Shown here: positions 1,237-25,309 of the stretch, one piece after another | How the letters are laid out: every line of letters starts with the position of its first letter | Position numbering within the stretch: position 1 is the first letter of the stretch | Assembly (NCBI GenBank): GCA_050014495.1 | Contig: JBEKDF010000009.1 | Span: 1-64,000 of the forward strand | DNA length: 64,000 nt | Source of the DNA: Candidatus Bathyarchaeia archaeon | GTDB lineage: Archaea; Thermoproteota; Bathyarchaeia; TCS64 | Direction: 5' to 3' | Notes under the pieces: generated by a model | Databases searched by the model: none | What the model was told of the DNA's origin: nothing | Seen by the model: the letters and a program-made list of their open reading frames with translations, nothing else | Position numbers and translations under genes: made by a program

Positions 1237-1554
1237 ATGTTATCTCTAAAGGACTCTTGGATAAAGGCTGCAATCGAACACAGGACGCTAACCATTAGAT
1301 ATCATTCCGGACGTACAAAAGGAGAATACACCGTCCGTGAAGTTGAACCTGATTACTATGGTTATGATGTTACAGGGAAAAATAACGGTTGCTGGGGTCT
1401 TTGCCGTCTTCGAGGTGATGTAAGGTGCTTCAAGGAAGACTCAATAATCGATTGGCATTATACTGGCAATACCTACTCTCCCAACCCGTTAGGAAGATGG
1501 CAAGAACTAATACCCATCTATAAAGCGAGAAAACTTGATCAAACGCATTGGTAA
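1237..1554 (+). CDS. stand-alone WYL-like domain protein
   Basis: AAIEHRTLTIRY...REVEP...GLCRLRGDVRCFK follows the WYL consensus (AI...Y...RxVxP...CxLRxxxRxF). Confidence 0.7.
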   Translation: MLSLKDSWIKAAIEHRTLTIRYHSGRTKGEYTVREVEPDYYGYDVTGKNNGCWGLCRLRGDVRCFKEDSIIDWHYTGNTYSPNPLGRWQELIPIYKARKLDQTHW

Positions 1555-1557
1555 AGA

Positions 1558-3516
1558 TTAAACGATCATTTTTTTATGCAAGGCATCTATTTTTTCAATA
1601 ATATCTTCAAAATGAGGAAATTTCAAACATCTACCATATGCAATTTCTGTGAACCGTGCCCACATCTCTGGATTTTTTCTAATTCTATCATCGTCACAAT
1701 CAAGTTCTTTTTCAATTTCCTCCCAGATGCTCTCAAAAACCTCCGTCGTCAAAATTCTATCAAGTTCTGTTTCTAAATTATGATCATTATACGCCCACTC
1801 ATCGAAAACCTTCTGAGCGGGTAGCGTTGTTTCCCTGCTTTGTACTAGCTTTAATATCTTTCTATTCTGAAGATCATAAGTACTATCTTTATCAAAAATG
1901 AGATAATTAGGAATTTTAAGACCGTCAAAAATTATTTTGGAGTTAATTACTCCGCCCTTGCCTCCGGTAGTTAGAATTGCAATCGAATACTTATTCCAGT
2001 TCTTTTCTTTCAGCTCTTGTAGCTTCCAAAGCACACCCAAATCGGATTGTCCCTCAACAAGCACGATAAAATCAGCAAAGAAACCTTCGTTCATAATTGT
2101 ATTCATGAGAGGAATTGAACGCACTCTAAAATTAGCAACAGGATCACGATAGGTGCGACCTTCACAGACTTCACTAAATCTAGCTCCGGCCTGGTCTATC
2201 GAAAAAGAGTGAATATTAATAGTTGGAGCAGCTTCTTCTTGTTTTATCTTTCGACATACTCTTAGATCGTCAAAACGTTCTAACCCAACGAAGAATGGGG
2301 AGTGAGTCGTGTAAATAACTTGAGTGTGAGGCTGCTCGTCCTCTTGGTCTCTTTTTGCTAGTTTGAGTAGGATATCCGAAAAGTATCTACATCGAGCAGG
2401 ATGCAAGTATAATTCAGGTTCTTCTATAGCTAATATTGTATCAATACGTACAGGTACTTGCCCTTCTTCGGCTTCTTCCTCTGAAATCTTCGCTTTAATA
2501 ATAGTCAAATATTCTAAAGGTGTAAGAATAATTGCTCTTTGCAGCCCATGCCCTTTATGCGATACATCGCTTTCAAAATTGTCCTCAAACACTGTTCGTG
2601 AAACGGTGGGAAGATTGATTTCTGGTGGCACCGGTTCATTCCAATTCAAACGAATTTCTGAACCTGGAGAATACCTTTCCAAAACTGTTGAAATATCCTT
2701 CGAAAGGTCTTCAAGTCCACCGAGGTTTTGTGGGCTGTACTTATTAATTATTGAACGAGTTACAACTTCTTTAAATTCTCGTAGGTCTACTCTTTGTTCA
2801 ATTTTTTCAAGAACTATCAAATCTAATAATTGATCAATCGCACTTCTGTTACCTTCCGTTTCTTCTGAGGCTTCTTTTACTGCTGGTAAGAAAATCAATT
2901 TAGTATACTTATCAAGGATACCCCCACCGACATTTCTTGCACCCAAGAAGGTACCTTTTGTTTGAAATACTTGTAGCTTTTCGGGGTGATCTTTTTCGTA
3001 TTGTTCCATCAACTCATCGACTACGCGCTCACTTGATGCTCTTCCTGTGAGCCCAGTCAAGGTAACACTTTCTACAAGTTGGGTGAAAGCTCTTCTTTTT
3101 TCTATAGCTCCTATAGTATTACGTATCTGCACAAATTCTGGTACTTGTTTTTTATAAGAATAATATTCTTCTACCGATTTTGAAGTTTCATCATTCCAAT
3201 GTATTATTTTCTTTATAGTTAATTTATCGTCTTGAATATATGATCTAAATTCATCTATCTCTTTATTTGTAAAATTATTAAATTCAATTTCAATTTCTAT
3301 AGGCTCTTCAGCATTACCATTATAGAAATCATCTATTTTTGTATTTGCTTCTGGTGTATAAAAATTATTTATCGCTTGAAGTATTGATGATTTTCCACTA
3401 TTATTTCTTCCTATGAATATTACTATATTTTTGAACAAAGTTGACACGTTTTTTAACGAACGGTAATTTTTTATTATAATTTTTTCAATTTTCATCTTAA
3501 TTGAAGGGCTATTCAA
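1558..3516 (-). CDS. OLD-family ATP-dependent endonuclease (ABC ATPase + TOPRIM)
   Basis: NYRSL, Walker A GRNNSGKS, GHGLQR signature, Walker B IEEPELYLHP, TTHSP, TOPRIM LVEGQSD...FDKD. The gene is visibly AT-rich. Confidence 0.9.
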   Translation of the reverse strand: MNSPSIKMKIEKIIIKNYRSLKNVSTLFKNIVIFIGRNNSGKSSILQAINNFYTPEANTKIDDFYNGNAEEPIEIEIEFNNFTNKEIDEFRSYIQDDKLTIKKIIHWNDETSKSVEEYYSYKKQVPEFVQIRNTIGAIEKRRAFTQLVESVTLTGLTGRASSERVVDELMEQYEKDHPEKLQVFQTKGTFLGARNVGGGILDKYTKLIFLPAVKEASEETEGNRSAIDQLLDLIVLEKIEQRVDLREFKEVVTRSIINKYSPQNLGGLEDLSKDISTVLERYSPGSEIRLNWNEPVPPEINLPTVSRTVFEDNFESDVSHKGHGLQRAIILTPLEYLTIIKAKISEEEAEEGQVPVRIDTILAIEEPELYLHPARCRYFSDILLKLAKRDQEDEQPHTQVIYTTHSPFFVGLERFDDLRVCRKIKQEEAAPTINIHSFSIDQAGARFSEVCEGRTYRDPVANFRVRSIPLMNTIMNEGFFADFIVLVEGQSDLGVLWKLQELKEKNWNKYSIAILTTGGKGGVINSKIIFDGLKIPNYLIFDKDSTYDLQNRKILKLVQSRETTLPAQKVFDEWAYNDHNLETELDRILTTEVFESIWEEIEKELDCDDDRIRKNPEMWARFTEIAYGRCLKFPHFEDIIEKIDALHKKMIV

Positions 3517-3937: not shown

Positions 3938-5095
3938 TTGAATTACATTGGTGAGTTTGTCGACGAAATAAGATCTCGTAAATTACATTTTCAATCAATT
4001 TTAGGCTTAACTAAAGATCGAAGTAGGCTGGAGGAGACCCTAAGAGAGGGCATCATGGACCACTGGTCAATTCTTCCTGATCGAGCTTTTTGTTTTAGTC
4101 GTGAATTTGCTGTTGACAGCAGTAGCGCGATGAGGAGTCTCTCGAATGGCATTGAACTCTACATCACGCGGAGCATGATGATAGGTAACGATGGGTCCAG
4201 AAGAAAAGGCGTAAAGTTTGAAATGATAAAAGCCCCACCCGCAGCCATGATTTCCCTAAATTTCGAAAGAATGCTTAGGGATTTGATCGAAGTTGAAGCA
4301 GTACTCAATAATGTTGAGAGTTTAAAGGATGGAGACATCGTTCTCGTGGATGGTAATCTGTACGGTCGTCTCACTCACCTCGTGGAAGAGCTCCCTCTAG
4401 AGAATTGGCGTCACCTTCCTTTGCTTATCTTCGAGAGACTTCAGAACCTCTTCATCAAATGCAGAGAAAAGAAGGTGATGCTAGTAGGCGTCTCTAAATT
4501 CAGCCGCACACGTGTACTGTGTAGCGCCCTTCTCAATGAAAAGGGCGTAAACATTACTGATCCCTTGTTCCTTGATACCGAGATAATAAATAGGTTCAAA
4601 CAGGGCGTTCCCGGTCACTCAACCCCGCTTCTCTTGGGCGAGTACGCTCTCGAGCGGGCTGAGGAGATGAGAATCGACCCGGAGAGCTACAGAAAACGGT
4701 ATTTTAGGAACATTCCGGAGTCACAGGTTGAATGGGCGGTTAAGACGATCCGCGGAGTATCTGAAGCCCCCGCTATTGCCATGTTCCACATGACGCCTAC
4801 CTTAGGGGAGCAGCCACTTAGGGTCGACATACCCGCTAGCTGCCTCGGGATCGACGCCAAGATAATGGATGTAAGACCCTACAAGTTCGTCGATCCATCT
4901 ATTGTCGAACCCGTCGTGAAGCAGCTGCTCTCAGGGTATGGAGGACGGGAGGTCTACAACGCCCTCCTCTGGGCAACCGATCATGAGGTTCGTCTGGGTG
5001 AGGAGGCTGTCGACACCATCTACAGGCAGGTCATAGGTGATGAGCTGGGGATCCAGGTTGAGTACGATAGGAGTTCTAGGAGGTTCCATGGATGA
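3938..5095 (+). CDS. nurA: NurA-family nuclease
   Basis: FAVDSS, LVDGNL and GVSK motifs. Overlaps the start of herA. Confidence 0.85.
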   Translation: MNYIGEFVDEIRSRKLHFQSILGLTKDRSRLEETLREGIMDHWSILPDRAFCFSREFAVDSSSAMRSLSNGIELYITRSMMIGNDGSRRKGVKFEMIKAPPAAMISLNFERMLRDLIEVEAVLNNVESLKDGDIVLVDGNLYGRLTHLVEELPLENWRHLPLLIFERLQNLFIKCREKKVMLVGVSKFSRTRVLCSALLNEKGVNITDPLFLDTEIINRFKQGVPGHSTPLLLGEYALERAEEMRIDPESYRKRYFRNIPESQVEWAVKTIRGVSEAPAIAMFHMTPTLGEQPLRVDIPASCLGIDAKIMDVRPYKFVDPSIVEPVVKQLLSGYGGREVYNALLWATDHEVRLGEEAVDTIYRQVIGDELGIQVEYDRSSRRFHG

Positions 5096-6687
5096 GTGCG
5101 AGAAAAGTAGGTTACATCGCCGGAGAGGTTGAGACCGGAAGCTTCTGGTTTGTAAGCGACTTAGAGGACTTTCCTCCCAGACACGAGTATCTAATAATCC
5201 CGCATGTTAGAGAGCGCAGCAGCTCCGGGTTCAAAGATGTTGAGGTACTTGCCCAGGTCAGTAGAATAGCGAACTACTCAGACATCTTGGGTGAGCGCCT
5301 CAGTCTTCAAGAGCTTGAAACCATAATCAGCCGCTACAGTGGAAATACCAAGGTCTACGGCGAGGCGAGTATCCTCGGCTACATGAGCGAGAGCGGCGAG
5401 GTGTTGATGCCACGCAGCGCAGCCATCCCAGGGCAGGAGGTATTCGTAGCCCCCACGGAGACACTGGAGCGCTTCTTCGCCCGAGACGTCAAGTCTGGGA
5501 TACCAATAGGTAATCTGATTACACGTGATGAGGTGAGAGTAGTAATCGACCCGAACGGCTTCAGGAGACACGTTGCAATAATTGCCCAGACGGGCGCCGG
5601 CAAGAGCTATCTCGTTGGCTTGATGCTTGAGCGCCTCCTTCCCCTCGGTGCAACGATAATCGTCTTCGACCCCAACAGCGACTACGTGATGATGAGGAGA
5701 GATTCGGGTGGGAACCCAACAAAGATAGCAGATGACGTGGTAATATATCGCCCCCCAGGAATATCGGGCAGACGCCACTCGGATGAGGAGATCGGCGGCT
5801 CGGAGAGCTACACCATTGACTTCAGTTCCCTCGGCTCCGAGGGAATCCAGGACGTCGCCGGCATCTCCTCACAGTGGACCCACATAATAAAGGCCATAGA
5901 ATCTGCCCTTCAAGGCCTACAGGGCTATTACGAGCCAAGGCAGCTAATTGAAGCGCTGACGAATCTGAGCAACGATGACCAATATCCCGAACAGCGAGCA
6001 GCGGGAAACGCGCTATCATACATAAAACGTCTTCAAAAGTACCCAATCTGGGGTAACAAGGATATCCCGATTACGGACCTCATACGTCCGATGCACATGA
6101 GCATCATAGACCTAGCTGGCCTCCAGAGGCGCGTATCCGCCTACATCGTCTCAAAGACCCTGGAAGACATCTGGTCCCGAGCAGTCACCGGAGACCTCGA
6201 CTTCCCAATATTCGTGGTGTTGGAGGAGGCCCACAACTTCGCACCCGCATCAGGAGGCGACAGGGCTGCATCAAGCGCAATAATCGAGCGAATAGCCGCC
6301 GAAGGGAGGAAATTCGGGATATTCTTAACAGTCATAACTCAGCGCCCGAACAAGATCAACAGCAACGTTCTGAGCCAGTGCAACAGCCAGATAATAATGA
6401 GGCTTACCAACCCGGATGACATGAGCGCGGTACGAAGAAGCAGCGAGGGATTGAGCGAGGAGCTATTCCAGGATCTGCCAGGGCTCAATCGTGGCGAGGC
6501 AATCATCGTGGGAGAGCTAACAAAGGTGCCTACCATGGTCAAGGTTACTGGGAGGCAGAGCGGAGAAGGCGGAAGCGACATAGATATCGTTGGTGCCTTA
6601 GAACGCGCCCGTGGGAAGCATAAATTCGATATGCACGCCGAGGAAAAACCCGATCAAAAAGACTCTGAATACCGCACGAAGTGGTGA
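5092..6687 (+). CDS. herA: HerA/FtsK-family DNA translocase
   Basis: HAS-barrel-like N-terminus, RHVAIIAQTGAGKS, FDPNSDY, VLEEAH, EGRKFG, TQRP. Confidence 0.95.
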   Translation: MSARKVGYIAGEVETGSFWFVSDLEDFPPRHEYLIIPHVRERSSSGFKDVEVLAQVSRIANYSDILGERLSLQELETIISRYSGNTKVYGEASILGYMSESGEVLMPRSAAIPGQEVFVAPTETLERFFARDVKSGIPIGNLITRDEVRVVIDPNGFRRHVAIIAQTGAGKSYLVGLMLERLLPLGATIIVFDPNSDYVMMRRDSGGNPTKIADDVVIYRPPGISGRRHSDEEIGGSESYTIDFSSLGSEGIQDVAGISSQWTHIIKAIESALQGLQGYYEPRQLIEALTNLSNDDQYPEQRAAGNALSYIKRLQKYPIWGNKDIPITDLIRPMHMSIIDLAGLQRRVSAYIVSKTLEDIWSRAVTGDLDFPIFVVLEEAHNFAPASGGDRAASSAIIERIAAEGRKFGIFLTVITQRPNKINSNVLSQCNSQIIMRLTNPDDMSAVRRSSEGLSEELFQDLPGLNRGEAIIVGELTKVPTMVKVTGRQSGEGGSDIDIVGALERARGKHKFDMHAEEKPDQKDSEYRTKW

Positions 6688-7856
6688 AGATGAGTCTTAA
6701 AATAGTCTTAACAGGTGACAACCACCTCAATTATTATAATCAGAAACTAGGATCGAGGCTTGCGAAGCGTCGAGAGTACATTGGGCGCAACTGGAGACGA
6801 ACCATAGACTACGCTATCGAGCACGAGGCCGACCTCTACCTACATACGGGTGACCTATTCGACCAGATCAGCCCGAGGAACCCTCCGCGTGCAAGCGTCG
6901 TTGAGGGTTTCAGGGAGTTGATCGACGCTGGCGTCCAGCCATTCATAATAGCTGGGAACCACGAGGCCCCCGGGAGCACGAGCGACGGCCTCTCCCCCCA
7001 CGCAGTGCTCCATGAAGCTGCCCTCGCAACCGTATTTGAGGACACTCTCAAACCCGAGCAGAAGATCATCGAAGTGAATGGTATACGGGTCTCAATCACG
7101 GGCATGTCATACAATCAGAGGCTAGGCCCCGGTAAAGATCCGCTCCAAGGTATCACACTTCCAGCCGGGGCCGATTACAACATCGCAATGCTGCACTATT
7201 CACTGGATAAGGTCACTTCAACTATCTGGGAGGAGCCAAGACTCGAGTTATCAAGCCTCGAGGAGAACCCCGCCATCCAATTGTATGCGATGGGTCACAT
7301 TCACGCGCACATTCACACAATGGTCGGCGACTCACTTGTCCTGTACCCAGGAGGCACTGAGCACTTCGACTTTGGTGAGGCTGAAAACTCCACAGGCTTC
7401 TGCGAAATCGTGTTCAGCGGTGGCAAGACCCGCTTCGAGTACATTCCGCTGGATTCCCAGCCGATGCATCAGCTGAAACAGCACACAAGCAGCTTGCCAC
7501 AAGGAAACCCAAGCGACGAACTGCTAAAACGTGTAGAGAAGGCAAGTGATCCCAATGGTCTTCTTCAACTGATCCTAGAGGGCGAGGTCCCATTCGACGA
7601 GTATACACGTATAGATTTTACATCGCTCTTCGATCGAGGCAACAGTGCCAACTTCTACTTTGAGTACGTTGACCGCATAAAGCCTCAAGTGGAGGGACTG
7701 GAGCTCGAAAAGGCCAGCGGGTTACATCCACGGGGCGAGCTCACGACCGTGGGGATGAAAGCTGTGGAGAACGCGGCTGATGAGGAGAAACAAGTTTGGG
7801 AGAGAGCGCTCGAGCTGGCTCTGGCAAGCTACGATAAATGCCAGGAAGGAACCTGA
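6681..7856 (+). CDS. mre11: Mre11/SbcD nuclease
   Basis: Phosphoesterase motifs GDNH, GDLFD, GNHE and GHIH are all present. Confidence 0.93.
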   Translation: MVKMSLKIVLTGDNHLNYYNQKLGSRLAKRREYIGRNWRRTIDYAIEHEADLYLHTGDLFDQISPRNPPRASVVEGFRELIDAGVQPFIIAGNHEAPGSTSDGLSPHAVLHEAALATVFEDTLKPEQKIIEVNGIRVSITGMSYNQRLGPGKDPLQGITLPAGADYNIAMLHYSLDKVTSTIWEEPRLELSSLEENPAIQLYAMGHIHAHIHTMVGDSLVLYPGGTEHFDFGEAENSTGFCEIVFSGGKTRFEYIPLDSQPMHQLKQHTSSLPQGNPSDELLKRVEKASDPNGLLQLILEGEVPFDEYTRIDFTSLFDRGNSANFYFEYVDRIKPQVEGLELEKASGLHPRGELTTVGMKAVENAADEEKQVWERALELALASYDKCQEGT

Positions 7857-10600
7857 TCGTGTTCAAACTCGTCAGCCTTAGGACCCTGGGTTTCAAGCGC
7901 CTGGAGCTCGAGGAGCCTCTGATGTTCCCGGATGGCAGGGTGCTGATCTATGGCAGGAACGAGAGTGGAAAGTCCACGGTCATGGAGGCCATCCATTATG
8001 CACTGTACGGATATCCTCTTTACCCAACTAAAAAGGCGTCTAACGAGGATGTGATCCGCTATGGAAGAAACGAAGTTCTGGTCGAGCTGGCCTTCACAAT
8101 TGATCAGAATCAGTACATCGTCAGGCGCATAATCAAGACAAAGGGTGCCAACACACACGAGCTACGTATACAGCGCCCAGAGAGTGGCCTCGAACGAATC
8201 ATGGGCGCCCGCCGAGTAAACGAAGCGATTATCGAGAACCTTCATGGACTCGATAGCGAGGCACTACTCAACAGCTGCCTAGTTGAGCAGAAGGAGTTAG
8301 GCAAACTCGAGTCCGGAAACAAGAATGAACGCATCAAAGCCATGACTAACCTCCTCAACATCGAGGCATTCGTTGAGGCCCGTGATGACATTAAGGGCGA
8401 ACAGAGGGATCTTGAGCGGGAAAACTATTCCACAAAAGAGCGTCTCGCTGAAGCTGAAAGTGCCAAGACGGCGTATGAGGACGCCGAAAAAAGGAAGATA
8501 GACGCAGAGAGCCGAGTCGATTCGATTAAATCAGAGCTCGACCAATCTGAGGCCCGTATCCAAGAATTAGACAAAATCCTTTCATCATTAGAGATCGCTA
8601 GAAACCTCGCCAACAAATCAGAGACCAAACGAATAGAGATCAAAGGAATAGACGATGCGATTCAAAGAATAAAAGCCAGTCTCGAAGAAGCGAGAAACGC
8701 ATCGCTAAGAGCTGAGAAACTCGAAGCTCAGCTACCCGTCGTTAGGAATCGTGCCGAGCAAGCGCAGAAGAAAACAGAGGACCTCGATAGGCTCCTGAGA
8801 CTCGAGTCCCAGCTCAGAGAAACCCGACAAAAACAAGTCGGAGTAAAGAACCGTATAGGTGACGCCTCTGAAAAAGCAGAGGAGGCGCAGAAAGCAAAGG
8901 AAAAAGTAGAGGAACTCGTACCGAGAATCACTGACTACGACCCCGCAAACTCTGCAAACACTCTTTTACCAACACTAGACTCGTTCGATCGGCGAATCAC
9001 AAACCTAAAGGCCGACGTGGAACGCGCCAGGGAAGCTGAACAGGCAGCAGAAAAACACCTATCAGCCCTCAAGGGCTCGGAGGAAAAACTCGGTGAATTG
9101 GAAAAGAGTTCCTCTGAACTAAATAGAAGTAAAGCGAAGGCAGCGCAAACAAGGATCATCGGTATAGTAATGGCGATAACAGGCGTTGTGATAGCAGTTG
9201 CTGCTATAATCATTCCTATAATAGCGGTAATTGGAGTACCCCTAGTCTTAGCCGGGGCAGTGCTATTCCTGAGGAACAGCACCTCGAAATTCGACTCAGG
9301 TATTTCGAGCCTCCAAGTGGAGAGAAACGCTCTGCTGGGCGATCAGCAGCGAATCGGTGACTATACCGAGTCATTTGAGAAGGCGCAGGCCTCAGAAAAA
9401 GTTGGTCTTGATGAACTTGGCAAAAGTGAACGAGAGTTAAGTGAAAAGCTCAGCACTCTGCCTACTAGACCAAGAGACTACGCATCAGTCGTAAAAAGCG
9501 ATGGCGATTTTTCCGCTTTAAGGAGTCAGGTCACCGAGGACCTCCAAATGCTAACTCGACTAAAAACTGAGATGGAAAAAGCGAATGAAATCTCAGCAGA
9601 GCTTGACGAGCGATTAGTAGCACTGGAAACCTTGAAAGAAGAATCCAGTGGCTATGAATTAGGATTAGATTCCATCCAGGAGAAGATAAACAAATACAAT
9701 GAATCCGGCGTAGAGGCATTAAAAGAAAAACAGATCAAAGAAGAAAGGGATGAGGCCAACGAAAATCTAACTCGTATTATCGAGGAGATCCGCGGGAAAA
9801 GGGAAACCGCATCAAAAATACAAAACATCGAGGCCGAGTTAAAACAAAGTCAAGAAGCTAATCAAACCGCAACCGCTGAATTAACCAATCTGGAAGCTGA
9901 ACGTGAACGCACCCTTGCTGAGAGCGGCGCAGATCCTAAAGATGAGGAAGAACTTGAGAGAGAAGACGAAGAGCTGATGAAACGCTGCTCGAGTCTCGAA
10001 ACCGAACAGGAGATCATGACAAAGCAGATAGACGAATCCTTCGAAACCATGGAGAACAATAAGCAACTACGTGAAGAGCATCCCTTACTCGAATCAAGAT
10101 ACACCACAGAGAAATTCGAGTTGGATGCGATGACTAGAGCCATAAAACTACTCGACATCACACGCGACAGTATCATGTCCGGGGTGAAAAAGAGCGTCGA
10201 GGCGCACATGGCCCAGTTCCTCCCGACTCTCACCGAGAACCGGTACAACATGGCGAGAATAGATGAAGAAGAGTACCAGATCGAAGCTTACGATAGGGAA
10301 GCGAAGACATGGAGGAGAAAGGGCGTCTTCAGCGGCGGAACACAGGATCAGTTCAGCCTGGCCCTGCGCCTCGCCTTTGCACTCAGTACAATACCGGAGA
10401 CCCGCGGTGCACGCCCAGGCTTCATCTTCCTCGATGAGCCATTAAGCAGCTTCGATTCGCAGCGCCGAGAGGGTTTCATAAACTTGTTAAAGAACGAGTT
10501 GAGCCAAAGCTTTCCCCAGATAATAGTCATAAGCCACATAGAGCAGCTACAGGAGGAGTTTCCAAACCTCATTCAACTCGACTCGGGAAGAGTAATATAG
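7838..10600 (+). CDS. rad50: Rad50/SbcC-like SMC ATPase with a central hydrophobic hairpin (true start may be GTG 7859)
   Basis: Walker A GRNESGKS, long coiled coil, FSGG signature, FLDEP, ISH. No CxxC. Hydrophobic stretch at aa ~440-478. Confidence 0.9.
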   Translation: MPGRNLIVFKLVSLRTLGFKRLELEEPLMFPDGRVLIYGRNESGKSTVMEAIHYALYGYPLYPTKKASNEDVIRYGRNEVLVELAFTIDQNQYIVRRIIKTKGANTHELRIQRPESGLERIMGARRVNEAIIENLHGLDSEALLNSCLVEQKELGKLESGNKNERIKAMTNLLNIEAFVEARDDIKGEQRDLERENYSTKERLAEAESAKTAYEDAEKRKIDAESRVDSIKSELDQSEARIQELDKILSSLEIARNLANKSETKRIEIKGIDDAIQRIKASLEEARNASLRAEKLEAQLPVVRNRAEQAQKKTEDLDRLLRLESQLRETRQKQVGVKNRIGDASEKAEEAQKAKEKVEELVPRITDYDPANSANTLLPTLDSFDRRITNLKADVERAREAEQAAEKHLSALKGSEEKLGELEKSSSELNRSKAKAAQTRIIGIVMAITGVVIAVAAIIIPIIAVIGVPLVLAGAVLFLRNSTSKFDSGISSLQVERNALLGDQQRIGDYTESFEKAQASEKVGLDELGKSERELSEKLSTLPTRPRDYASVVKSDGDFSALRSQVTEDLQMLTRLKTEMEKANEISAELDERLVALETLKEESSGYELGLDSIQEKINKYNESGVEALKEKQIKEERDEANENLTRIIEEIRGKRETASKIQNIEAELKQSQEANQTATAELTNLEAERERTLAESGADPKDEEELEREDEELMKRCSSLETEQEIMTKQIDESFETMENNKQLREEHPLLESRYTTEKFELDAMTRAIKLLDITRDSIMSGVKKSVEAHMAQFLPTLTENRYNMARIDEEEYQIEAYDREAKTWRRKGVFSGGTQDQFSLALRLAFALSTIPETRGARPGFIFLDEPLSSFDSQRREGFINLLKNELSQSFPQIIVISHIEQLQEEFPNLIQLDSGRVI

Positions 10601-10628: not shown

Positions 10629-11702
10629 AAATCTAAGAATGGCGATATTAGACTGGAGAAAACTCAGAAACATGGTTTCAACGACATTACAACCCTTCAT
10701 GCTAGAATTTCCCCTCCTTCAGATCCAATTATGAGTGGCACAGATGTAGTTCTAAAAGGCGTAACTGACAAAGATATTGAAGAAGCAAAAAAACTATTTC
10801 TCCGATTCTCTAGCGAGAAAACACTTGAAAAAACCCAATACGGGGAGCTACTAAGTAAAACCGGTAAAATTGGTTTAATCTATATAAATGGAGTAAAAGT
10901 AGCGGAGGAGGAGAATTTCCTCTTCAGTTATAACATTATCTCATTAACCAATGCAATAAGAAAGGCTCTAAACCGGGAAAGGACAAATGTCGGGCGCACC
11001 GCTTATTCCTCTCGTATTAAAAACATCCTACTCTCCTGCAAAGAAGGACACGTTGCAGAGTTTCTAATGAAGGACCTTCAGGAATACTCGTCGGGGTTGA
11101 TGCATGATGAATTAAAATGGATCGACATTCAGGAGCATGCAGTAAAGATTCTAAACACAGAGGGAAAACATGTCTTTCTAACCTCTTCAGAGATAATGAG
11201 CCATGGAAATATTGTAAATGAAGCAAGGGACATGGGTTATAAAATAATAACGATTCCTGAAAGTTTGAGGGATAAAATTCAGGGAGAACAGGATCTTCAC
11301 GGAAAACCAATCGTGGACGTCTTGCAGTTTAGCGACGATTACAATAAGAGTTTTAAATTCAAATTTATTGAAATATCCGAACTGAATAATAATGAAAAAC
11401 ATATTTTTGAGTTGAGAAATAAAATCTTCAACTTAATTGGAGGCCGTCCCAGACAAATTATTGATATTAAAATCTCTGAAACTATGCGGAAGAACTTCAT
11501 GGGTGAAGACGACACTGATGGTGTATGGGAAAATGGAGTGATTATTCTCAAGAGAAATCAGCTTCGATCATTAGATTATTTCTCGGCGACCCTTCTTCAC
11601 GAAACAGCGCACGCTATCAGCGGTGCTCCTGATTCTTCGCGGCTCTTTGAACAGACACTTAGTGAAATATTAGGTCGTGTGACAGTTCAAGCCCTAAAGT
11701 GA
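10629..11702 (+). pseudogene. N-terminally truncated protein with LNRER and HExxH motifs (resembles MPN635-like ATP-binding proteins)
   Basis: The frame is open upstream of ATG 10731 (KSKNGDIRLEKTQKHGFNDITTLHA...). It contains ALNRERTNVGRTAY and LLHETAH. The expected N-terminal ATPase part is missing. Confidence 0.55.
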
Positions 11703-11840
11703 AGCGATTTTTCATGTACCTATATCGGCCAAAAAAAAGTATTCAAATTCAAGGTTCGATTTCTTTAGATTCTCCAGCGGAACTTTGTACCTCATTTTAG
11801 AGCAGGAGATTGCTGAAAATACTTCGACAGTCTCGCCTGA

Positions 11841-12510
11841 GAGAACTTGATTATAAGAAGATTCGTAGTAACCTTGTTTTCTGACTCAGCAACTAAACAA
11901 GCTAGACAACGAACACACCAAAACACCGACAAACCCAACATAAGAAGCAGAACCGACACCGAAAAACACCAAAAACAAGCCGCGGCACCACCCCAAAACC
12001 ATAAAAACCTCCCCAGAGAGCCCCAACCATCCTCCCCCCAAACCGGATCCATGGCCGACGCTATCAGACAACACCCAGACCACACAGCTGCAGCAAATTA
12101 AAACAGAAACAGCTGAAAACCATCTTAACCCGAACCCTGGGAAGCGACGTAACCAGCACCCGCCCGCCGTCGAACACCCGTTTGATCACCGCAAACGTCC
12201 TCTCAATCGGACGCCGCTTCAACCCGATCCGCCGGTTACGCGCCTTATCCGCCTCACAGAGCGGGTGACCGCGAACCCCACGCCTCATCGATGCATCCCA
12301 CCCACGCGGCTCCACGCCGAAGTACCCTTTATCCCGATACACGACCTCACCGGGGAGACTCAGATCCACCCTGCTGTCATGCACCGAGGCCGAAGTCGCC
12401 TCAACGGCTCGAACCAACCCGTACTCGAGATCAGTCTTAACGTGCAGCTTGTACCCGAAGAACGACTCCTTCAGCCTCTTCGCCCACGTCCCGTCCTTGC
12501 TCCGGCGGGT
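11841..12510 (-). mobile_element. IS5-family remnant: C-terminal transposase fragment (12064..~12510) plus right end
   Basis: TRRSKDGTWAK..FGYKLHVKTD..SVHDS..YRDKGY..RRPIERTFAVIK are IS5 DDE motifs. Followed by a C/A-rich tail and a possible terminus GAGAACTTG at 11841. Confidence 0.85.
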
Positions 12511-12838
12511 CAAGGACTCCAAAACCGTCGGGAAGGACCTCGCGAGGCTGCTAAGGGTCGAGGAGCTCCAGAACATCTACACAAACGCGAAAAGCTGCGA
12601 GAACATGCTAGAAGGGAAGGTCACCGCCTGGCTCAGTGAAAAGGCGAATGTGGAAACTCAGATCAGGGACAGGAAACTAGAGAAGGTGGCCATCTATATC
12701 GGTTTGCAGAAGAAGCTGAATGCATCGAAAGGGAGACTGACGAAGAGAGGCGATGAATTAGAAAGGCAAAGGAAGGCTAGAAAGTCAAAAAGGAAAGAGA
12801 TCGAGAAAAAGGCAAGCGCGCTTCTATCAGATTCTTAA
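12511..12838 (+). pseudogene. orphan coiled-coil fragment
   Basis: LARLLRVEELQNIY... followed by a charged heptad-like stretch. No plausible start of its own, and it abuts the IS fragment. Confidence 0.35.
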
Positions 12839-12981
12839 GTAATTAACAGCAAAATAGCCACGGCTTCCGAAACCTAAAAAGGGAACCAACTCACTACAGA
12901 GCAGGTAGAAAACCATTTGAAAGCCACCCTGAACCGTGAAATAAATTCCCCCATAATGGACGTTCTAATAACAGTTATTGA

Positions 12982-12998
12982 TGGTAGCCCGGCGGAGA
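12982..12998. repeat. att site: duplicate of the tRNA-Gln 3' end (TGGTAGCCCGGCGGAGA)
   Basis: Exact 17-bp direct repeat of 25234..25250. Confidence 0.93.
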
Positions 12999-13075
12999 CC
13001 TCTGGCTAGCCATTTTTTCTATAAATTTTTAACTTTTTAATGATTAAAATATCAACTTGGTTACTAATTAGTGAA

Positions 13076-13618
13076 TTAGTCTAATATCAAATCAATTTCT
13101 TCTTCTATTTGAGGTATGTGATACAAATTATCCTTTATATCAAAATAATCAACTTGAATGCGTATCTTATTCTGATTTCTAATGTACTGCTCAACTTCTG
13201 GTGAATCATTACTAGGATAATGATAAACAGATCCTGCAGGTATTCTTAGAAAAGAATAATTACTATGAAGAGATCTAAGTGGAATTTTATTATTTTCATG
13301 ATCAATAACATAAATAACTCCTTTGACAGCTGGACCTAGACCTATATTTTCGATAAAAATACCCGGTATAAAAATCTGTTCATTTGTTATTCCACCGAGA
13401 CCGATAGCTAATCTCTGTCTTTGTGCTATTGAGGAAGGTCTTAAGAATATTCTCGGTTGAACGAGTGTTTTACTCCATTCTTCCATCGTTTTTCTTGATA
13501 ATTGGTTGCCTTTATAGATCAAAAACGCGCATATTGCAGATGCCATAGCAGAAAGAGCAGCTATAATTTGGAAAATAATAGTGAGGTCCATCAATTCAAT
13601 CATTATTTTACTATACAT
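13076..13618 (-). CDS. hypothetical protein with N-terminal membrane anchor
   Basis: Hydrophobic N-terminus IIFQIIAALSAMASAICAFLIY. AT-rich cargo-like gene. Confidence 0.7.
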   Translation of the reverse strand: MYSKIMIELMDLTIIFQIIAALSAMASAICAFLIYKGNQLSRKTMEEWSKTLVQPRIFLRPSSIAQRQRLAIGLGGITNEQIFIPGIFIENIGLGPAVKGVIYVIDHENNKIPLRSLHSNYSFLRIPAGSVYHYPSNDSPEVEQYIRNQNKIRIQVDYFDIKDNLYHIPQIEEEIDLILD

Positions 13619-13681
13619 AAAAAACTATGTTAACGTAAGTTACGCTTATTCCTTAAAACTCTGAAGGCTGATTGAGGGTTC

Positions 13682-13867
13682 TTGAGAGGGAAAGTGATCC
13701 ATGTATATCTCACTAAGCCTCTAGTTGACCTTGTTTTAGAGGCCGTGAAGCCTCTAGGCATCAGTAAAAGTGAATTCATCAGGTACGCGGTCATCGAACA
13801 CCTCATCAAGACGGGCTACATCAAGACACCTCAATCCGTGAGGAACCCTCGACCTCGAGGTGAATAG
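13682..13867 (+). CDS. ribbon-helix-helix (CopG-like) DNA-binding protein
   Basis: VIHVYL...LGISKSEFIRYAV pattern. Confidence 0.75.
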   Translation: MRGKVIHVYLTKPLVDLVLEAVKPLGISKSEFIRYAVIEHLIKTGYIKTPQSVRNPRPRGE

Positions 13868-14114
13868 GATAGCTAGGAAGGCTGTCAAGGTTTATCTCCC
13901 TCCTCAGCTCGGCCTCGCCCTGGAGGTGGCCAGCAAGGATCTCGGGATTAGTGAGGAGGAGATCATGAGGTGGGCCTTCACGGAGTTTGCGATCTCAAGA
14001 GGCCGCTTGGCTCAGAGTCACCTGGACCCCGCAGAGCTTTCAGATCGCCCTATTCAAAGGGCAAAGGATCAGTCCATAATCAACGCTTTAAAAGCAGCAA
14101 GAGATCAGGCCTGA
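13860..14114 (+). CDS. ribbon-helix-helix-like protein
   Basis: VKVYLP...LGISEEEIMRWA, a paralog-like neighbour of the previous ORF. Confidence 0.65.
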   Translation: MNRIARKAVKVYLPPQLGLALEVASKDLGISEEEIMRWAFTEFAISRGRLAQSHLDPAELSDRPIQRAKDQSIINALKAARDQA

Positions 14115-14329
14115 CTGACTGAAAGCATGAGGAGTTTAGAGATCCTACAGCCATTAGATTAGAGCTCCTGGTCCTTGGTGTCGGGCCTGAGCTCCAGGGA
14201 CTATGAGAACCTCGGCATCAGTGATCGAGATGTCCTGAACTTCCTCATGAATTAAGCTTTGAGTAGCGAGGACCTCAAGGTCGATTAGGCCGCGCGCGCA
14301 TGTTAAAAAAGAATTGATAGTTTTGATGC

Positions 14330-14608
14330 TTATTCCCAGGTGTGCGCTCTTACCAGGTTCAAAGTTTCCTTTTTGACTACGTTGCATGTAGTAGTTGAAG
14401 CTACTCCCTCAGTGAACCTGATCTCCAACGCAATTTCGCTAAGTTTTTCCTTTTCCTCAGCCTGGGCCACAACGTAGAAGTCGTATGGTCCGAAAAGGAT
14501 GTCGGCATCGATCACACCTTTGATACTCTTGAACTTGTCTAGAGTTTCCAGCGGGAATGACCGAGCCAAACTTCCGAGGATGACCGCTTTTTCCATATCA
14601 ATACTCAC
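14330..14608 (-). CDS. stand-alone Lrp/AsnC ligand-binding (RAM) domain protein
   Basis: IKGV...FGPYD...IRFTEGVASTTT. Confidence 0.85.
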   Translation of the reverse strand: MSIDMEKAVILGSLARSFPLETLDKFKSIKGVIDADILFGPYDFYVVAQAEEKEKLSEIALEIRFTEGVASTTTCNVVKKETLNLVRAHTWE

Positions 14609-14925
14609 TTTATTAATTGTCCATATTTTTTATATAAACCTATCCAAACATCAATTATGAAAGAAAAATATTGGTCATATGCACGTTATATTTGTCTTTC
14701 GTTGTTCATATCGCGCACGAGTGATTTCTGGGTAGGATGGATTAAATGCGTCCTAGTTCAAGTATGATTTGATGGGGAATTCCGGCGCGAATCATGTGTA
14801 GGGTTTTATGAGTGCCTCTCAGGGCTCACACTGATCAGGTACTACCACACGCGGATCGGGAGATTCTCTCCGACGGTGAAAGGTGAGAGGATCCTCAGTG
14901 AAGTCTTGGCGGAGGAGGTTCAGCG

Positions 14926-15264
14926 TTGACGGTGAGGCGCGGCAAGTGGAAGGCTCGACGTGTGGTTATGGGGAGGAGCCTGAGGCCTGTGGAGTTGGGC
15001 TCCGTGAAGACCAGTCAAGAGGTTTTACGCGCTGCTGAGCTGGGCATCGACCTTGAGTATGTTTCAGATAAGAACCTGTTACGCGGCTACATCAGCCTGA
15101 TTAGTCATGGCCAGATCATGCAGATCCCTCCCGCTATTCGCGGAAAATTGGCGCGGGCGGATCTGATCACTTACCAGTGTCGTGGCAGAAACAGCGTCTT
15201 AACGCAGCGAGGCAAACAAATGCTCCGCGAGATCGAGGAGGAGAAGAAGAAGGAGGTACCGTGA
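14926..15264 (+). CDS. hypothetical protein, possible C-terminal winged-helix
   Basis: SD-like GGAGG upstream. LARADLI...LTQRGKQML resembles a wHTH wing. Confidence 0.55.
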   Translation: MTVRRGKWKARRVVMGRSLRPVELGSVKTSQEVLRAAELGIDLEYVSDKNLLRGYISLISHGQIMQIPPAIRGKLARADLITYQCRGRNSVLTQRGKQMLREIEEEKKKEVP

Positions 15265-15269
15265 ACGAG

Positions 15270-15700
15270 GAAACAGTTTCATGGTACTGTTTTAGAACCT
15301 CCTCGTGAATGTGATCAGAGATAATCGGTTTTGAATCCTAAACCCTGAAACCTTAAACAGTTTCACGATATACAGTTCAGGGATGAATTGTAGTTTATAC
15401 AATTGTACAACTGTATAACTGTACTCATTCTATACAACTGGCGAATACAATACAGGGATGAACAGTTTTTGAACCCTGAAATTAACCCTGAACCAGTTTC
15501 ATGTTTTCAGGGAAAAGACGCCTAAACCGTGTTTAAGAGCTCCCCTGAAACAGTATCAAACTGGCTGAATCTCCCAAAAATACAATCATCTCACCAAACG
15601 AACCTGAAAAACGGGGTATTCCAGTTTCTACAGGTTACAGGATACAATTTCGTGAAACCCCCAAATCGCCTATTCTGAAACCGTACTAATACCCTGCTCA
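15270..15700. repeat. non-coding cluster of short CCCTGAA / CAGTTTC / TACAA motifs (candidate origin or protein-binding array)
   Basis: CCCTGAA at 15343, 15474, 15486, 15543; reverse complement TTCAGGG at 15376, 15506; CAGTTTC at 15274, 15358, 15494, 15622. No ORF. Confidence 0.6.
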
Positions 15701-15807
15701 TTAGCGCCTGCTAATGAACATGCGATGAAAAGGCCCTCGGGCTACCTTGAATAAATGCTTAGTCTCCGGGGGCCCCGAACAAATCTCATGCCAACCAGAA
15801 TGAGGTG

Positions 15808-16461
15808 TCAAGCAGATCCAGGAGCTTCCCAGGATCCCTCTAAGTCTTGAAGTGCCAGGTCAAGATGTCCAATTTCAGTTGGATAACTATCCCCGAGTTC
15901 CCTCTCCAATTCTTTAATTTTTTTAATAGCATCTTTACTCATACTTAGATCAGAAAATAATGATCTTAATTCGTTGATGTCTTTAGGATTTAATGATTGG
16001 TTAATAATATGTCTCTTCAAGGGAGCCAATAGTCCATTTTCGTTAGTAGCGTATCTTGATGAAATACTCGTCCATTCTCTACCTGTTTCAATTTGTTTAA
16101 GAGCACAATACATAGACAATATTCCCATCCATTTGATTAATGACTCTAACAATTTTTTAGAGTTTGATTCATTCATAGATTCTTTTTTTATCTCTTCATT
16201 TATTTTAGATGTTAATTCAAATTCTGCATTAAATAACGATAAACTTGAAACTTTATATTTTTTACTATCAATGTCTTTTTCAACCTCATGCTTTTTAATT
16301 AACGCATCTAGTTCTTTTGATAGTGTCTCCTTGCTTCCAATTTCAATTTTTAATGCTCTATGCAGTTCGTTAAATCCAAGTGAAACATGATTTTTTAGAG
16401 TATGGAATATCAATTCTTGTCTTTCTTCATCTCTTGGATCAGGCCCTCGTTTAATATACAT
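15808..16461 (-). CDS. winged-helix transcriptional regulator (repressor-like)
   Basis: LGFNELHRAL..GSKETLSKELDALIK is an HxlR-like wHTH. Divergent from the element's main operon. Confidence 0.7.
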   Translation of the reverse strand: MYIKRGPDPRDEERQELIFHTLKNHVSLGFNELHRALKIEIGSKETLSKELDALIKKHEVEKDIDSKKYKVSSLSLFNAEFELTSKINEEIKKESMNESNSKKLLESLIKWMGILSMYCALKQIETGREWTSISSRYATNENGLLAPLKRHIINQSLNPKDINELRSLFSDLSMSKDAIKKIKELERELGDSYPTEIGHLDLALQDLEGSWEAPGSA

Positions 16462-16518
16462 TGTACTACTGGTACATAATTCCGAACCGATTATAAAGGT
16501 TTACGCTAAACGACACCC

Positions 16519-16734
16519 ATGGACGAACAAACAGAGTTAGAATCCATCGTTATGGCTACTCGAGTAACTCCCGGAGATTATGAGCTTCTCAAGAAGGTTT
16601 GTGTTGCTCGGGGTGAGAACTTCAGCACTTTTTTAAGGAGATCTCTAAGAGGTGAGCTCGCCAGGCTTTCATATTATTCTCCCGAGGTCAAGAAGGCCCT
16701 CGGCGTCAAGATTGAAGAAATTGGAGGTGTCTAA
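16519..16734 (+). CDS. RHH-like small regulator
   Basis: MATRVT..YELLKKV..RGENFSTFLRRSL. First gene of the rightward operon. Confidence 0.65.
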   Translation: MDEQTELESIVMATRVTPGDYELLKKVCVARGENFSTFLRRSLRGELARLSYYSPEVKKALGVKIEEIGGV

Positions 16735-16736
16735 GA

Positions 16737-16880
16737 GTGAAAGCCGACTGCCCGAACTGTAGACTGAGGGCCGTCGAACCCTCGAAGAGTTGGAAGATGA
16801 CCGGGAAAGGCGGGATCGTACTCTCGACACATCAATTCCGATGTCCAACATGCGGCTTCAAGTGGCGGTCCTACTCATGA
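16737..16880 (+). CDS. 47-aa Zn-ribbon protein, Cren7-like
   Basis: Below the ORF-track cutoff. GGAGGTG SD, GTG start, reads KADCPNCRLRAVEPSKSWKMTGKGGIVLSTHQFRCPTCGFKWRSYS. Its stop overlaps ATG 16877. Confidence 0.7.
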   Translation: MKADCPNCRLRAVEPSKSWKMTGKGGIVLSTHQFRCPTCGFKWRSYS

Positions 16881-17728
16881 AGCAGGTCAGAAAAGGTGCA
16901 GTAATCAGGTCCGCCAACCTGGTCAACTCGTTCACCGACTCATACGCTGGTAAGAGCCCTTCTTCGACACAACAAGCCAGAATAGTGGCCTCCGGTTTCA
17001 CTTATTATTATGGCCATGATCCATCAAAGTGGATTCAGGACGATATTTACGGTTACCTCAAGAGAAACGAGGGGCTGAGTCGAAGCACTCAGTATTGCTA
17101 CTCGGTGATCCTTAGAGCCCTTCTCAGGTTCTGCCACAGAGAAGACCTAGCTAAACTGGTAAAACCGCCTAGAAGGATCAGCGCCGGCAAGAAATACCCC
17201 ACCGATGATCAAGTGGACAAGCTTTTCAATGTGGCCGAGACGCTCTTGGAGAAATGCGTAGTCCAGGGCCTCTCACACACGGGCGTGAGAGTCGGTGAGC
17301 TCGTCCATCTCGAGGTGGATGACTTTGATTTCGAAAAACGTCAGATAAGTATCTGCGCGAAGAATGGATGGATCCCCAAGGAGTATAAGGAGAGGAACGT
17401 GCCCGTCGACACCAAGACCGCTTCAATGGTGAAGGAGCACATAGGCGATAGAACGACAGGCAAAATCTTCCCCTACTCAGAGACTTGGATACGTAGGCTC
17501 ATCAACGATTTATCTGAGAGGGCTGGATTAAGCGAGCTCCATATCACCCCACACTCGTTACGACATGGCTACGCTGTCCACGCATTGAAACACGGTATGG
17601 ATCTCCGTAGCCTTCAGAAGATCCTCGGGCACGCCGATCTGGCCACGACAGCTACTTATCTCCAGCTGACTGACCGAGACGTCGCCGAAGCATACGACAA
17701 GGTCTTCGAGAAGGGAGCCGAGGCATGA
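16877..17728 (+). CDS. XerC/D-like tyrosine recombinase
   Basis: TGVRVGEL, HSLRH, LGHADLATTATY. Start placed at the ATGA overlap (16877) rather than 16790. Confidence 0.92.
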   Translation: MKQVRKGAVIRSANLVNSFTDSYAGKSPSSTQQARIVASGFTYYYGHDPSKWIQDDIYGYLKRNEGLSRSTQYCYSVILRALLRFCHREDLAKLVKPPRRISAGKKYPTDDQVDKLFNVAETLLEKCVVQGLSHTGVRVGELVHLEVDDFDFEKRQISICAKNGWIPKEYKERNVPVDTKTASMVKEHIGDRTTGKIFPYSETWIRRLINDLSERAGLSELHITPHSLRHGYAVHALKHGMDLRSLQKILGHADLATTATYLQLTDRDVAEAYDKVFEKGAEA

Positions 17729-25267: not shown

Positions 25268-25309
25268 GGGTCCAAAGCCCTCCATCCTTGTCCACTAGAC
25301 GACCGGGCT
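25234..25309 (-). tRNA. tRNA-Gln(TTG), CCA encoded, no intron
   Basis: Reverse complement AGCCCGGTCGTCTAGTGGACAAGGATGGAGGGCT-TTG-GACCCTTAGACCGGAGTTCGAATCTCCGCCGGGCTACCA folds as a cloverleaf. Confidence 0.97.

Follow-up and report, generated by a model that had tools for sequence, protein, structure and literature searches.

The CxxC zinc hook, through which the tips of the coiled coils dimerise, is viewed as one of the features that define Rad50, and as essential to its function, from phage to human. An operon in the genome of a Bathyarchaeia archaeon raises the question whether an Mre11-Rad50 complex can do without the hook and what might stand in its place. The stretch of DNA analysed here, referred to as the window, comprises positions 1-64000 of contig C9 of a 3.1-Mb, 92-contig Bathyarchaeia bin, and it carries nurA, herA, mre11 and a Rad50-like gene, all on the + strand with overlapping or abutting ends, as a single compact unit. 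We found that the Rad50-like protein has a conserved hydrophobic hairpin at the apex where Rad50 usually has its CxxC hook, and with moderate confidence we read the operon as a membrane-anchored variant of the archaeal Mre11-Rad50/HerA-NurA end-processing machine. The original prediction, made from the DNA sequence of the window, had coupled the gene to NurA, HerA and Mre11, and these three indeed lie directly upstream of it on the same strand.

A hydrophobic hairpin at the apex

The gene for the Rad50-like, SMC-type ATPase closes the operon at 7838..10600 (+ strand; 920 amino acids from the ATG at 7838), and the GTG at 7859 is probably the likelier start, since the resulting 913 residues equal the length of the database copy P0005, fit the family consensus start and let the gene abut the mre11 stop at 7856; under that start the hairpin would be numbered 433-471 of 913. 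In the 920-residue numbering, residues 440-478 (nucleotides 9155-9271) form a 39-residue stretch without Asp, Glu, Lys or Arg. It lies at the midpoint of the protein (relative position 0.50), contains Pro460 and Pro468 and reaches 3.02 in its best 19-residue Kyte-Doolittle window, while the protein has only two cysteines, C147 and C717, and no CxxC. An uncharged midpoint segment with a central proline in a protein devoid of CxxC was what had been predicted, and the description proved exact. The protein as a whole is 33.9% charged, and when its residues were shuffled 20,000 times, the longest uncharged run averaged 14.7 residues and peaked at 38, so that no shuffle reached the 39 of the real protein.

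In an AlphaFold2 model calculated with the family profile A1 (36 of the homologs described below), this stretch appears as a helix-turn-helix at the coiled-coil tip, with a predicted local distance difference test score (pLDDT) of 78-85 at the apex. Hydrophobic helix 1 (residues 440-455; 9155..9202, + strand; mean Kyte-Doolittle 2.82) lies within model helix 414-455, and hydrophobic helix 2 (residues 460-478; 9215..9271, + strand; mean 2.62), with Arg479 following, corresponds to model helix 460-479. Between the two, DSSP on the model places a break at residues 456-459, AIII (9203..9214, + strand), a tight turn that together with the following Pro460 is hydrophobic in the window protein; in the relatives, Ser, Tyr, Pro, Asn and Gly are overrepresented midway through the core, and of the residues in the least hydrophobic middle 5-mers of the family cores 6.8% are proline. 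Each helix has two glycines seven residues apart, G442 and G449 in helix 1 and G466 and G473 in helix 2, which gives a G-x6-G face per helix. G449 and G473, each present in 36/36 aligned members, are the sole invariant hairpin residues in A1, G442 and G466 are majority glycines, and no proline column within the hairpin is invariant.

A search of ~5.8 billion proteins gave 189 matches at E <= 0.001, and the best 120 of these 189 were used; they are 32-69% identical to the query and belong to Bathyarchaeota wherever the source gives a name. All 120 have a hydrophobic uncharged central stretch at relative position 0.42-0.50, which is 36-48 residues long in most of them and split by one charged residue, with runs of 20-28, in seven, and none of the 120 has a CxxC. 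Profile A1, built from 36 of these best 120 homologs and searched against 1.84 billion cluster representatives, matched 754 clusters (50% identity) at E <= 1e-30. We further inspected 120 full-length representatives, namely new sequences of at least 700 amino acids among the best 150 profile matches: a central segment with a Kyte-Doolittle value of at least 1.6 over 17 residues was present in 118, and a CxxC in none. Conservation in operon homologs had been set beforehand as a test of the idea that a transmembrane-type hairpin replaces the zinc hook, and the idea stood, with the segment present in 120/120 best homologs and 118/120 representatives. The system is not a rare one confined to the window, as the 754 clusters extend over several archaeal and bacterial phyla.

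The core of the hairpin could be delimited in 231/241 family members. Its median length is 44 residues (5-95%: 39-54), and 1.9% of it is charged (200/10,380 residues in 231 proteins). Arg or Lys stands directly before the core in 222/231 proteins and directly after it in 174/231, and the 12 residues upstream hold 852 Lys and Arg versus 348 Asp and Glu, the whole-protein ratio being 0.85. Membrane helices that begin and end in the cytoplasm typically show such an Arg/Lys collar around a low-charge core. Across the family, the hairpin varies freely in sequence but keeps its character and location.

The ABC-ATPase head of the hairpin protein is complete and of Rad50 type. Pfam SMC_N, AAA_23 and SbcC_Walker_B all match over cut-off, and the best NCBIfam matches are five Rad50 equivalogs at ~100 bits. 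The head is split, with Walker A and the Q-loop N-terminal and the signature motif, Walker B and the H-loop C-terminal. Within the Walker A P-loop GRNESGKST (residues 39-47; 7952..7978, + strand), G39, N41, E42, S43, G44, K45 and S46 are invariant in 36/36 aligned members, as are S832, G833, Q836, D837, Q838 and F862-P868 in the stretch from the signature motif FSGGTQDQ (residues 831-838) through Walker B FIFLDEP (residues 862-868; together 10328..10441, + strand); with the Q-loop VEQKELG and the H-loop ISH also present, all five motifs are invariant or nearly so among the 36. Run against all PDB sequences, A1 gave 14 matches, of which 13 were Rad50 chains at E values of 2.2e-28 (3aux, the best) to 2e-08, the top solved relatives including 3aux, 5f3w, 3qku and 3qf7; the SMC head 1e69 matched at 1.4e-09. 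The AlphaFold2 model (mean pLDDT 81.4) comprises a head and a long helical arm, in which helices 176-455 and 460-798, with few breaks, make a long antiparallel coiled coil from two helical arms of about 260 and 320 residues.

Hook and hairpin across genomes

Searching the same genome with the Rad50 model NF003034 yielded a second cluster, on contig C2, consisting of NurA (97121-98407), HerA (95505-97124), Mre11 (94260-95504) and a 686-residue Rad50 (92203-94263) that has CPKC at residue 344, its midpoint. The window operon resembles this canonical archaeal zinc-hook operon in its four genes and their order and in the Rad50-type ABC head, the long antiparallel coiled coil and the adjacent Mre11; it differs at the apex, where a CPxC is replaced by the 39-residue hydrophobic hairpin, and in arm length, the hairpin protein having 920 amino acids versus 664-706 for most fetched hook-type Bathyarchaeia Rad50s. 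Because the two operons are only 26-31% identical protein by protein (NurA 26%, HerA 31%), they are old paralogs, and we rejected a recent duplication of the native operon as the source of the hairpin operon. The C2 Rad50 is the native copy, given that it is 90% identical to its counterpart in the congener G162. Pfam Rad50_zn_hook (PF04423) gave nothing over cut-off anywhere in the genome, and it also missed the true CPKC hook on C2 (11.8 bits); as the model is thus insensitive, hooks were sought by a CxxC scan and alignment.

We then compared the two types in a sample of 201 Bathyarchaeia genomes. Hairpin proteins were counted by A1 at E <= 1e-30 (41/201 genomes) and hook proteins at E <= 1e-25 by a second profile, A2, made from 13 hook-type Rad50s in which C344, P345 and C347 are invariant (132/201). 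The result was 39 genomes with the hairpin only, 126 with the hook only, two with both and 34 with neither; since kin are not independent, no significance test is given. The two hairpin carriers with a strong hook-type match are the window genome and its congener G108, in which a complete hook-type operon and a pair of Mre11 and hairpin-Rad50 genes lie on separate contigs. Four more hairpin genomes, with A2 matches at E 1e-26 to 1e-28, were counted as hairpin only; in G159 and G073 the coordinates of the match are those of the hairpin gene itself. Given this near-exclusion, the hairpin form is the only Rad50 found in most of its carriers. In 10/10 hairpin-only genomes (93-98% complete, from six families), NF003034 found the hairpin gene, an SMC of ~1,170-1,210 amino acids and an SMC-like protein of 670-890 amino acids without CxxC, and nothing else, and in 22/22 hook-type open reading frames (ORFs) taken from relatives the midpoint carries CPxC and a hydrophobic core is lacking. 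The 670-890-residue SMC-like protein is the ortholog of C1:13643-15697 (- strand) of the window genome, whose 684 residues contain neither CxxC nor a hydrophobic core; orthologs at 32-63% identity are present in seven of the ten hairpin-only genomes, and in the other three the matches are likewise confined to the N-terminal part.

Beyond the class, a one-genome-per-species scan gave 76 loci with 48 full-length hairpin-type ORFs, none of which has a CxxC. According to their records, the archaeal carriers are Bathyarchaeia, Thorarchaeota, Promethearchaeati and Nitrososphaeria, and the bacterial ones Dictyoglomota, Chloroflexota (Anaerolineae, Ktedonobacterales, Chloroflexia), Armatimonadota and Nitrospirota. 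Partner genes were counted at loci with enough flank, using the proteins of the window genome as queries, so that divergent partners can escape. Mre11 is encoded directly upstream at 19/19 archaeal and 15/24 bacterial loci, and NurA plus HerA upstream at 10/16 archaeal loci, where the gene order is that of the window, and at 6/20 bacterial loci. The neighbours of the related loci are mostly housekeeping genes, such as those for glyceraldehyde-3-phosphate dehydrogenase, an M50 peptidase, a Toprim protein, diphthamide synthase, leucyl-tRNA synthetase and, at two loci, UvrA/UvrB, and the downstream gene order is conserved among the 920-residue Bathyarchaeia loci.

A FastTree phylogeny of 63 rows, aligned over their full length and many of them odd in composition, separated the hairpin type from the hook type with support 100. 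It put the window protein at the base of a 920-residue Bathyarchaeia clade that is sister to a bacterial group (support 96), not to the shorter archaeal hairpin clade (757-803 amino acids); this topology hints at transfer between the domains, the direction of which the tree does not give. One locus recorded as bacterial, L027 (Candidatus Krumholzibacteriaceae bacterium), nests with its whole NurA-HerA-Mre11-Rad50 set in the Bathyarchaeia clade beside L034 on very short branches, and is probably an archaeal contig that was assigned to a bacterial bin.

Among described proteins, the nearest in architecture, judged by its published description, is SbcE (YhaN), which acts with SbcF (YhaO) in B. 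subtilis. In the available part of Krishnamurthy et al. (Nucleic Acids Res 2010; PMC2811018), SbcE is an SMC-like ATPase nearest to SbcC/Rad50 that has no CxxC but a hydrophobic central domain, with a highly conserved proline, between two heptad regions of ~300 residues; both the full-length protein and the central domain were completely insoluble when expressed, an SbcD/Mre11-like nuclease gene is its neighbour, and it has roles in double-strand-break repair and transformation, with polar foci in competent cells. A hydrophobic domain for the hook, the lack of CxxC and the SbcD-like neighbour all recur in the window protein, and the precedent of a central hydrophobic segment in YhaN, which the original prediction had named, is thereby borne out. 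The part of that paper available to us nowhere calls the central domain transmembrane and proposes no membrane anchor. As described there, SbcE differs in coexisting with SbcCD and in having no NurA-HerA partners, whereas the window protein belongs to a NurA-HerA operon. Pfam PF13514 (AAA_27) matches the window protein at 32.2 bits versus a cut-off of 22; this is not diagnostic of the YhaN type, because 12/14 control genomes pass, hook-type organisms included. In the phylum of a Eubacteriales match, only 2/101 sampled genomes matched the family profile at E <= 1e-12. In Chloroflexota, Dictyoglomota and other bacteria, the hairpin proteins, for which the literature searched has no name, share the central hairpin and the lack of CxxC, and Dictyoglomaceae loci have the complete NurA-HerA-Mre11 set upstream, as in the window; the bacterial proteins are longer (947-1703 amino acids).

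Among defence systems with SMC-like ATPases, the best PADLOC match of the window protein is LmuB of Lamassu (PDLC03859, 88 bits), with which it shares an SMC-like head and a coiled coil. The Lamassu partners are absent from the window, where there is no LmuA-type effector and the partners are Mre11, HerA and NurA, and PADLOC found none of the own partner or effector genes of Lamassu, Wadjet, PARIS or Gabija. A term search of the Lamassu paper PMC12663957 gave neither a membrane nor SbcE/YhaN, and the available text of PMC9905601 connects the Ted loci for DNA import in Thermoproteales with genes for Rad50 and HerA, with no membrane hairpin mentioned. In the literature searched, parts of PMC7752040, PMC12663957, PMC9389158, PMC13748450 and PMC2288612 included, we found no description of a hookless or transmembrane archaeal Rad50. 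Hairpin-type archaeal Rad50 is thus common in sequence databases and undescribed in the literature searched.

A possible membrane anchor and competing explanations

As judged from sequence features, the entire machine that cuts DNA ends is probably fixed to the cell membrane. In the mechanism that we propose for such a membrane-anchored machine, the hairpin would insert in the cytoplasmic membrane with both of its ends cytoplasmic, a topology forced by the return of both arms to one head, and would take over from the hook the task of closing the apex. In Mre11(2)Rad50(2), the two Rad50 protomers would be joined in the plane of the membrane, possibly via their glycine faces, so that the membrane itself would complete the Rad50 ring. 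The head and Mre11 could reach up to ~35-40 nm into the cytoplasm (estimated as ~260 residues x ~0.15 nm), where they would bind and cut DNA ends that HerA-NurA would then resect. A complex prediction for two copies of the apex (residues 385-535, with A1) returned 'no answer' with a score of 0.00 twice, which bears neither way on dimerisation.

The near-exclusive distribution speaks for hook and hairpin doing the same essential job, and for the hairpin form acting as the general repair complex wherever no other was found; in most carrier lineages it would be the housekeeping break-repair complex. A broader proposal, which we hold at roughly even chances, is that the hook is dispensable for a cell's only Mre11-Rad50 and that a membrane hairpin replaces it in whole Bathyarchaeia lineages and in some Asgard, Nitrososphaeria, Chloroflexota and Dictyoglomota, with the ring closed by the membrane and break sensing and resection taking place at the envelope. 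Broken or incoming DNA ends would then be handled at the cell periphery, and hook and hairpin would be interchangeable solutions to apex closure. A large natural family in which the hook is swapped for a hairpin, nearly all-or-none between genomes in Bathyarchaeia, amounts to a natural experiment on the purpose of the apex, ring closure versus the bridging of two DNA ends, and the window genome with both operon types is a potential test case. If the anchor is real, end processing would be confined to a shell beneath the membrane, which would bear on archaeal repair, DNA uptake and viral DNA, and the hairpin would give the little-studied Bacillus SbcE/SbcF pair a structural explanation for the insolubility and the polar foci.

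Several points weigh against a membrane-anchored general repair complex. The case for membrane insertion is drawn only from hydrophobicity, flanking charges and a monomer model, and the hairpin may dip into the membrane instead of crossing it, as its helices are short (16 and 19 residues) and its turn is hydrophobic. The curated NCBIfam Rad50 equivalogs are far from being reached, with ~100 bits versus cut-offs of 700-1087 (the three best scores of 100.9, 100.4 and 97.8 bits face cut-offs of 847, 700 and 1000). In the genome sample, 34/201 genomes show neither type at the thresholds used, most genomes are incomplete bins, so that a 'sole Rad50' means that no other was found, and the weak A2 matches of G120 and G057 (E ~1e-26) are unplaced, at a level like that of the cross-matches in G159 and G073. 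Finally, the window genome already has a native hook-type operon, and its hairpin copy sits among defence and mobile genes, which makes a housekeeping role less obvious here than elsewhere.

The last point leads to an explanation that keeps the anchor and changes the job: the window copy may be a surveillance or uptake module that meets linear DNA at its entry, from a virus, by conjugation or by transformation, and destroys it or resects it for recombination. We regard this as possible, yet rather unlikely. One argument for it is the setting of the operon. Directly upstream of nurA, a stretch (1237-3516) with a GC content of 0.351 versus 0.493 for the genome holds a WYL-domain gene (1237-1554, + strand; Pfam WYL) and an OLD-family ATPase-Toprim nuclease gene (1558-3516, - strand; Pfam AAA_15 and OLD-like_TOPRIM; PADLOC Old, 190 bits), which are probably a separate defence unit adjoining the operon, the OLD-family gene being on the opposite strand. 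Downstream follow an ORF of no family, a DDE transposase fragment, an integrase, an MCM-like element, a PD-(D/E)XK gene and a second integrase, a tyrosine integrase (23882-25267, + strand; Pfam Phage_integrase) that abuts a tRNA-Gln gene (25234-25309, - strand; found by ARAGORN), and here the strain-specific region has its right edge. Compared at the DNA level, four congeners showed synteny at 66-82% identity from window position ~25234 onward, while positions 1-25233 shared with them only the transposase fragment and two short matches to the hairpin locus of G108. The operon is therefore part of a strain-specific region, at least 25 kb long, that is populated by defence and mobile genes. In G162 the sequence on the far side of the tRNA corresponds to contig C6 of the window genome (~75-89 kb), and the end of C6 (87500-95114), the contig that thus carries the other flank, holds a Cas1 fragment. 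Taken together, this has the appearance of a composite island at tRNA-Gln that includes the two integrases, the transposase fragment and the MCM-like element. The hairpin operon of the window genome can accordingly be described as a second, old paralog that arrived on a strain-specific island, an addition to the native hook operon, which was kept.

Evidence from elsewhere adds to the case for such an entry module. Directly upstream of a hairpin-type NurA-HerA-Mre11-Rad50 operon of Thorarchaeota (L068) lie cas1-cas2 (336-1672), type III CRISPR-Cas is known to have HerA-NurA pairs among its accessory genes according to the part of PMC6546367 available to us, and SbcE aids transformation and, in competent cells, localises to the poles (PMC2811018, in part). 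Against it stand the 39/41 sampled carrier genomes in which no other Rad50 was found and the housekeeping neighbours and conserved synteny of most related loci. Nor do collections of mobile DNA or defence models point to it: a collection of 50,697 phage records gave no match and one of 72,556 plasmids gave only five weak partial matches, PADLOC had no model matching NurA or Mre11 and only generic ATPase matches for HerA and the Rad50-like protein (generic SMC-type in the latter, LmuB included, without a Lamassu partner), and in the annotated loci no DNA-uptake or pilus gene lies beside the operon. The processing of foreign DNA, which the original prediction had put forward, is thus disfavoured as the task of a dedicated system, because the protein is the sole Rad50 found in most carriers and its neighbours are housekeeping genes, and general anchored repair is favoured over it; for the window copy, which belongs to a second operon within the strain-specific island and beside an OLD-family nuclease, foreign-DNA processing retains some plausibility.

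The hairpin might instead be a soluble, greasy hinge, two hairpins forming a four-helix bundle that replaces the zinc hook outside the membrane. Dimerisation of coiled-coil tips is, after all, the established role of the hook, the invariant glycines at heptad spacing suggest tight helix packing, and helices of 16 and 19 residues are short for a complete membrane crossing. Such a bundle would need polar outer faces, however, in cores that hold 200 charged residues among 10,380 and in helices with a mean hydrophobicity of 2.6-2.8, and the Arg/Lys collar on either side fits membrane helices with cytoplasmic ends. The complete insolubility of SbcE and of its central domain, reported in the part of PMC2811018 available, also speaks against it, and we consider the hinge improbable. 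Very improbable, finally, is that the tethered Rad50-Mre11 serves chiefly to hold HerA at the envelope as an FtsK-like pump that moves or clears chromosomal DNA in segregation or division, for although HerA belongs to the FtsK-HerA superfamily and is co-operonic with NurA in 10/16 archaeal loci, no HerA is adjacent in 6/16 archaeal and 13/20 bacterial loci with enough flank, which makes the anchor independent of HerA, and division genes are absent from the annotated contexts.

Further features of the operon and its relatives

The first gene of the window operon, nurA (3938..5095, + strand; 385 amino acids), matches Pfam NurA PF09376 at 47.7 bits (cut-off 21), and its stop overlaps the start of herA by 4 nucleotides. 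The herA product (5092..6687, + strand; 531 amino acids), a hexameric FtsK/HerA-type translocase, matches Pfam DUF87/HerA PF01935 at 115.7 bits and NCBIfam helicase_HerA at 204 bits, under the equivalog cut-off of 970, and has weak Pfam matches to FtsK_SpoIIIE and T4SS-DNA_transf. The metallophosphoesterase nuclease encoded by mre11 (6681..7856, + strand; 391 amino acids) scores 45.4 bits with Pfam Metallophos and 69 bits, under cut-off, with NCBIfam Mre11_Sulfo; its translation contains the strings GDNH, GDLFD, GNHE and GHIHAH, which we take to be phosphoesterase motifs. An antisense ORF inside the Rad50-like gene (8935-9282, 115 amino acids) was considered and found to be without support. 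An artefact, frameshift or pseudogene was ruled out by the intact frame, the conserved motifs, the hundreds of homologs and the presence of the DNA in sequencing runs from many studies; the 24 runs listed are all recorded as DNA and mostly labelled peat metagenomes.

Directly 3' of the Rad50-like gene lies a 323-residue ORF (10731-11702, + strand; GC 0.385) that has no Pfam or PADLOC match and no counterpart 3' of the operon in the annotated related loci. At the Thorarchaeota locus L068, the region 3' of the operon (11791-16940) encodes a D12 adenine methyltransferase and a 1397-residue protein with a HerA/TrwB-like ATPase domain.

The C-terminal arm of the coiled coil is broken at LPTRPRDY (residues 541-548; 9458..9481, + strand), ~62 residues past the hairpin, where the model is non-helical over residues 539-558. 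In this LPxxPRxY break P542 and Y548 are invariant in the aligned members, and the pattern PxxPxxY occurs in 119/121 close family members versus 1/118 distant representatives, its near-absence from the bacterial hairpin proteins being another difference from the window protein. Its counterpart in the other arm is DYxPA (residues 366-373, ~8933-8956), ~70 residues before the hairpin. Both breaks are specific to the Bathyarchaeia subfamily, and they could form a joint or docking site that we estimate to be ~10 nm below the apex.

Archaeal hairpin proteins come in two length classes, ~908-932 and ~757-803 amino acids, as seen with P0051, P0092, P0095 and similar proteins and among the loci L054-L087; as the hairpin is at the midpoint in both, the two arms shorten in step, by ~65 residues. 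Very long hairpin-type members also exist, of 1345 amino acids in Armatimonadota (L029, 7563-11600) and 1703 amino acids in Chloroheliaceae (L059, 6468-11579); the hairpin of the former is at relative position 0.44, and the longest uncharged run of the latter lies off-centre.

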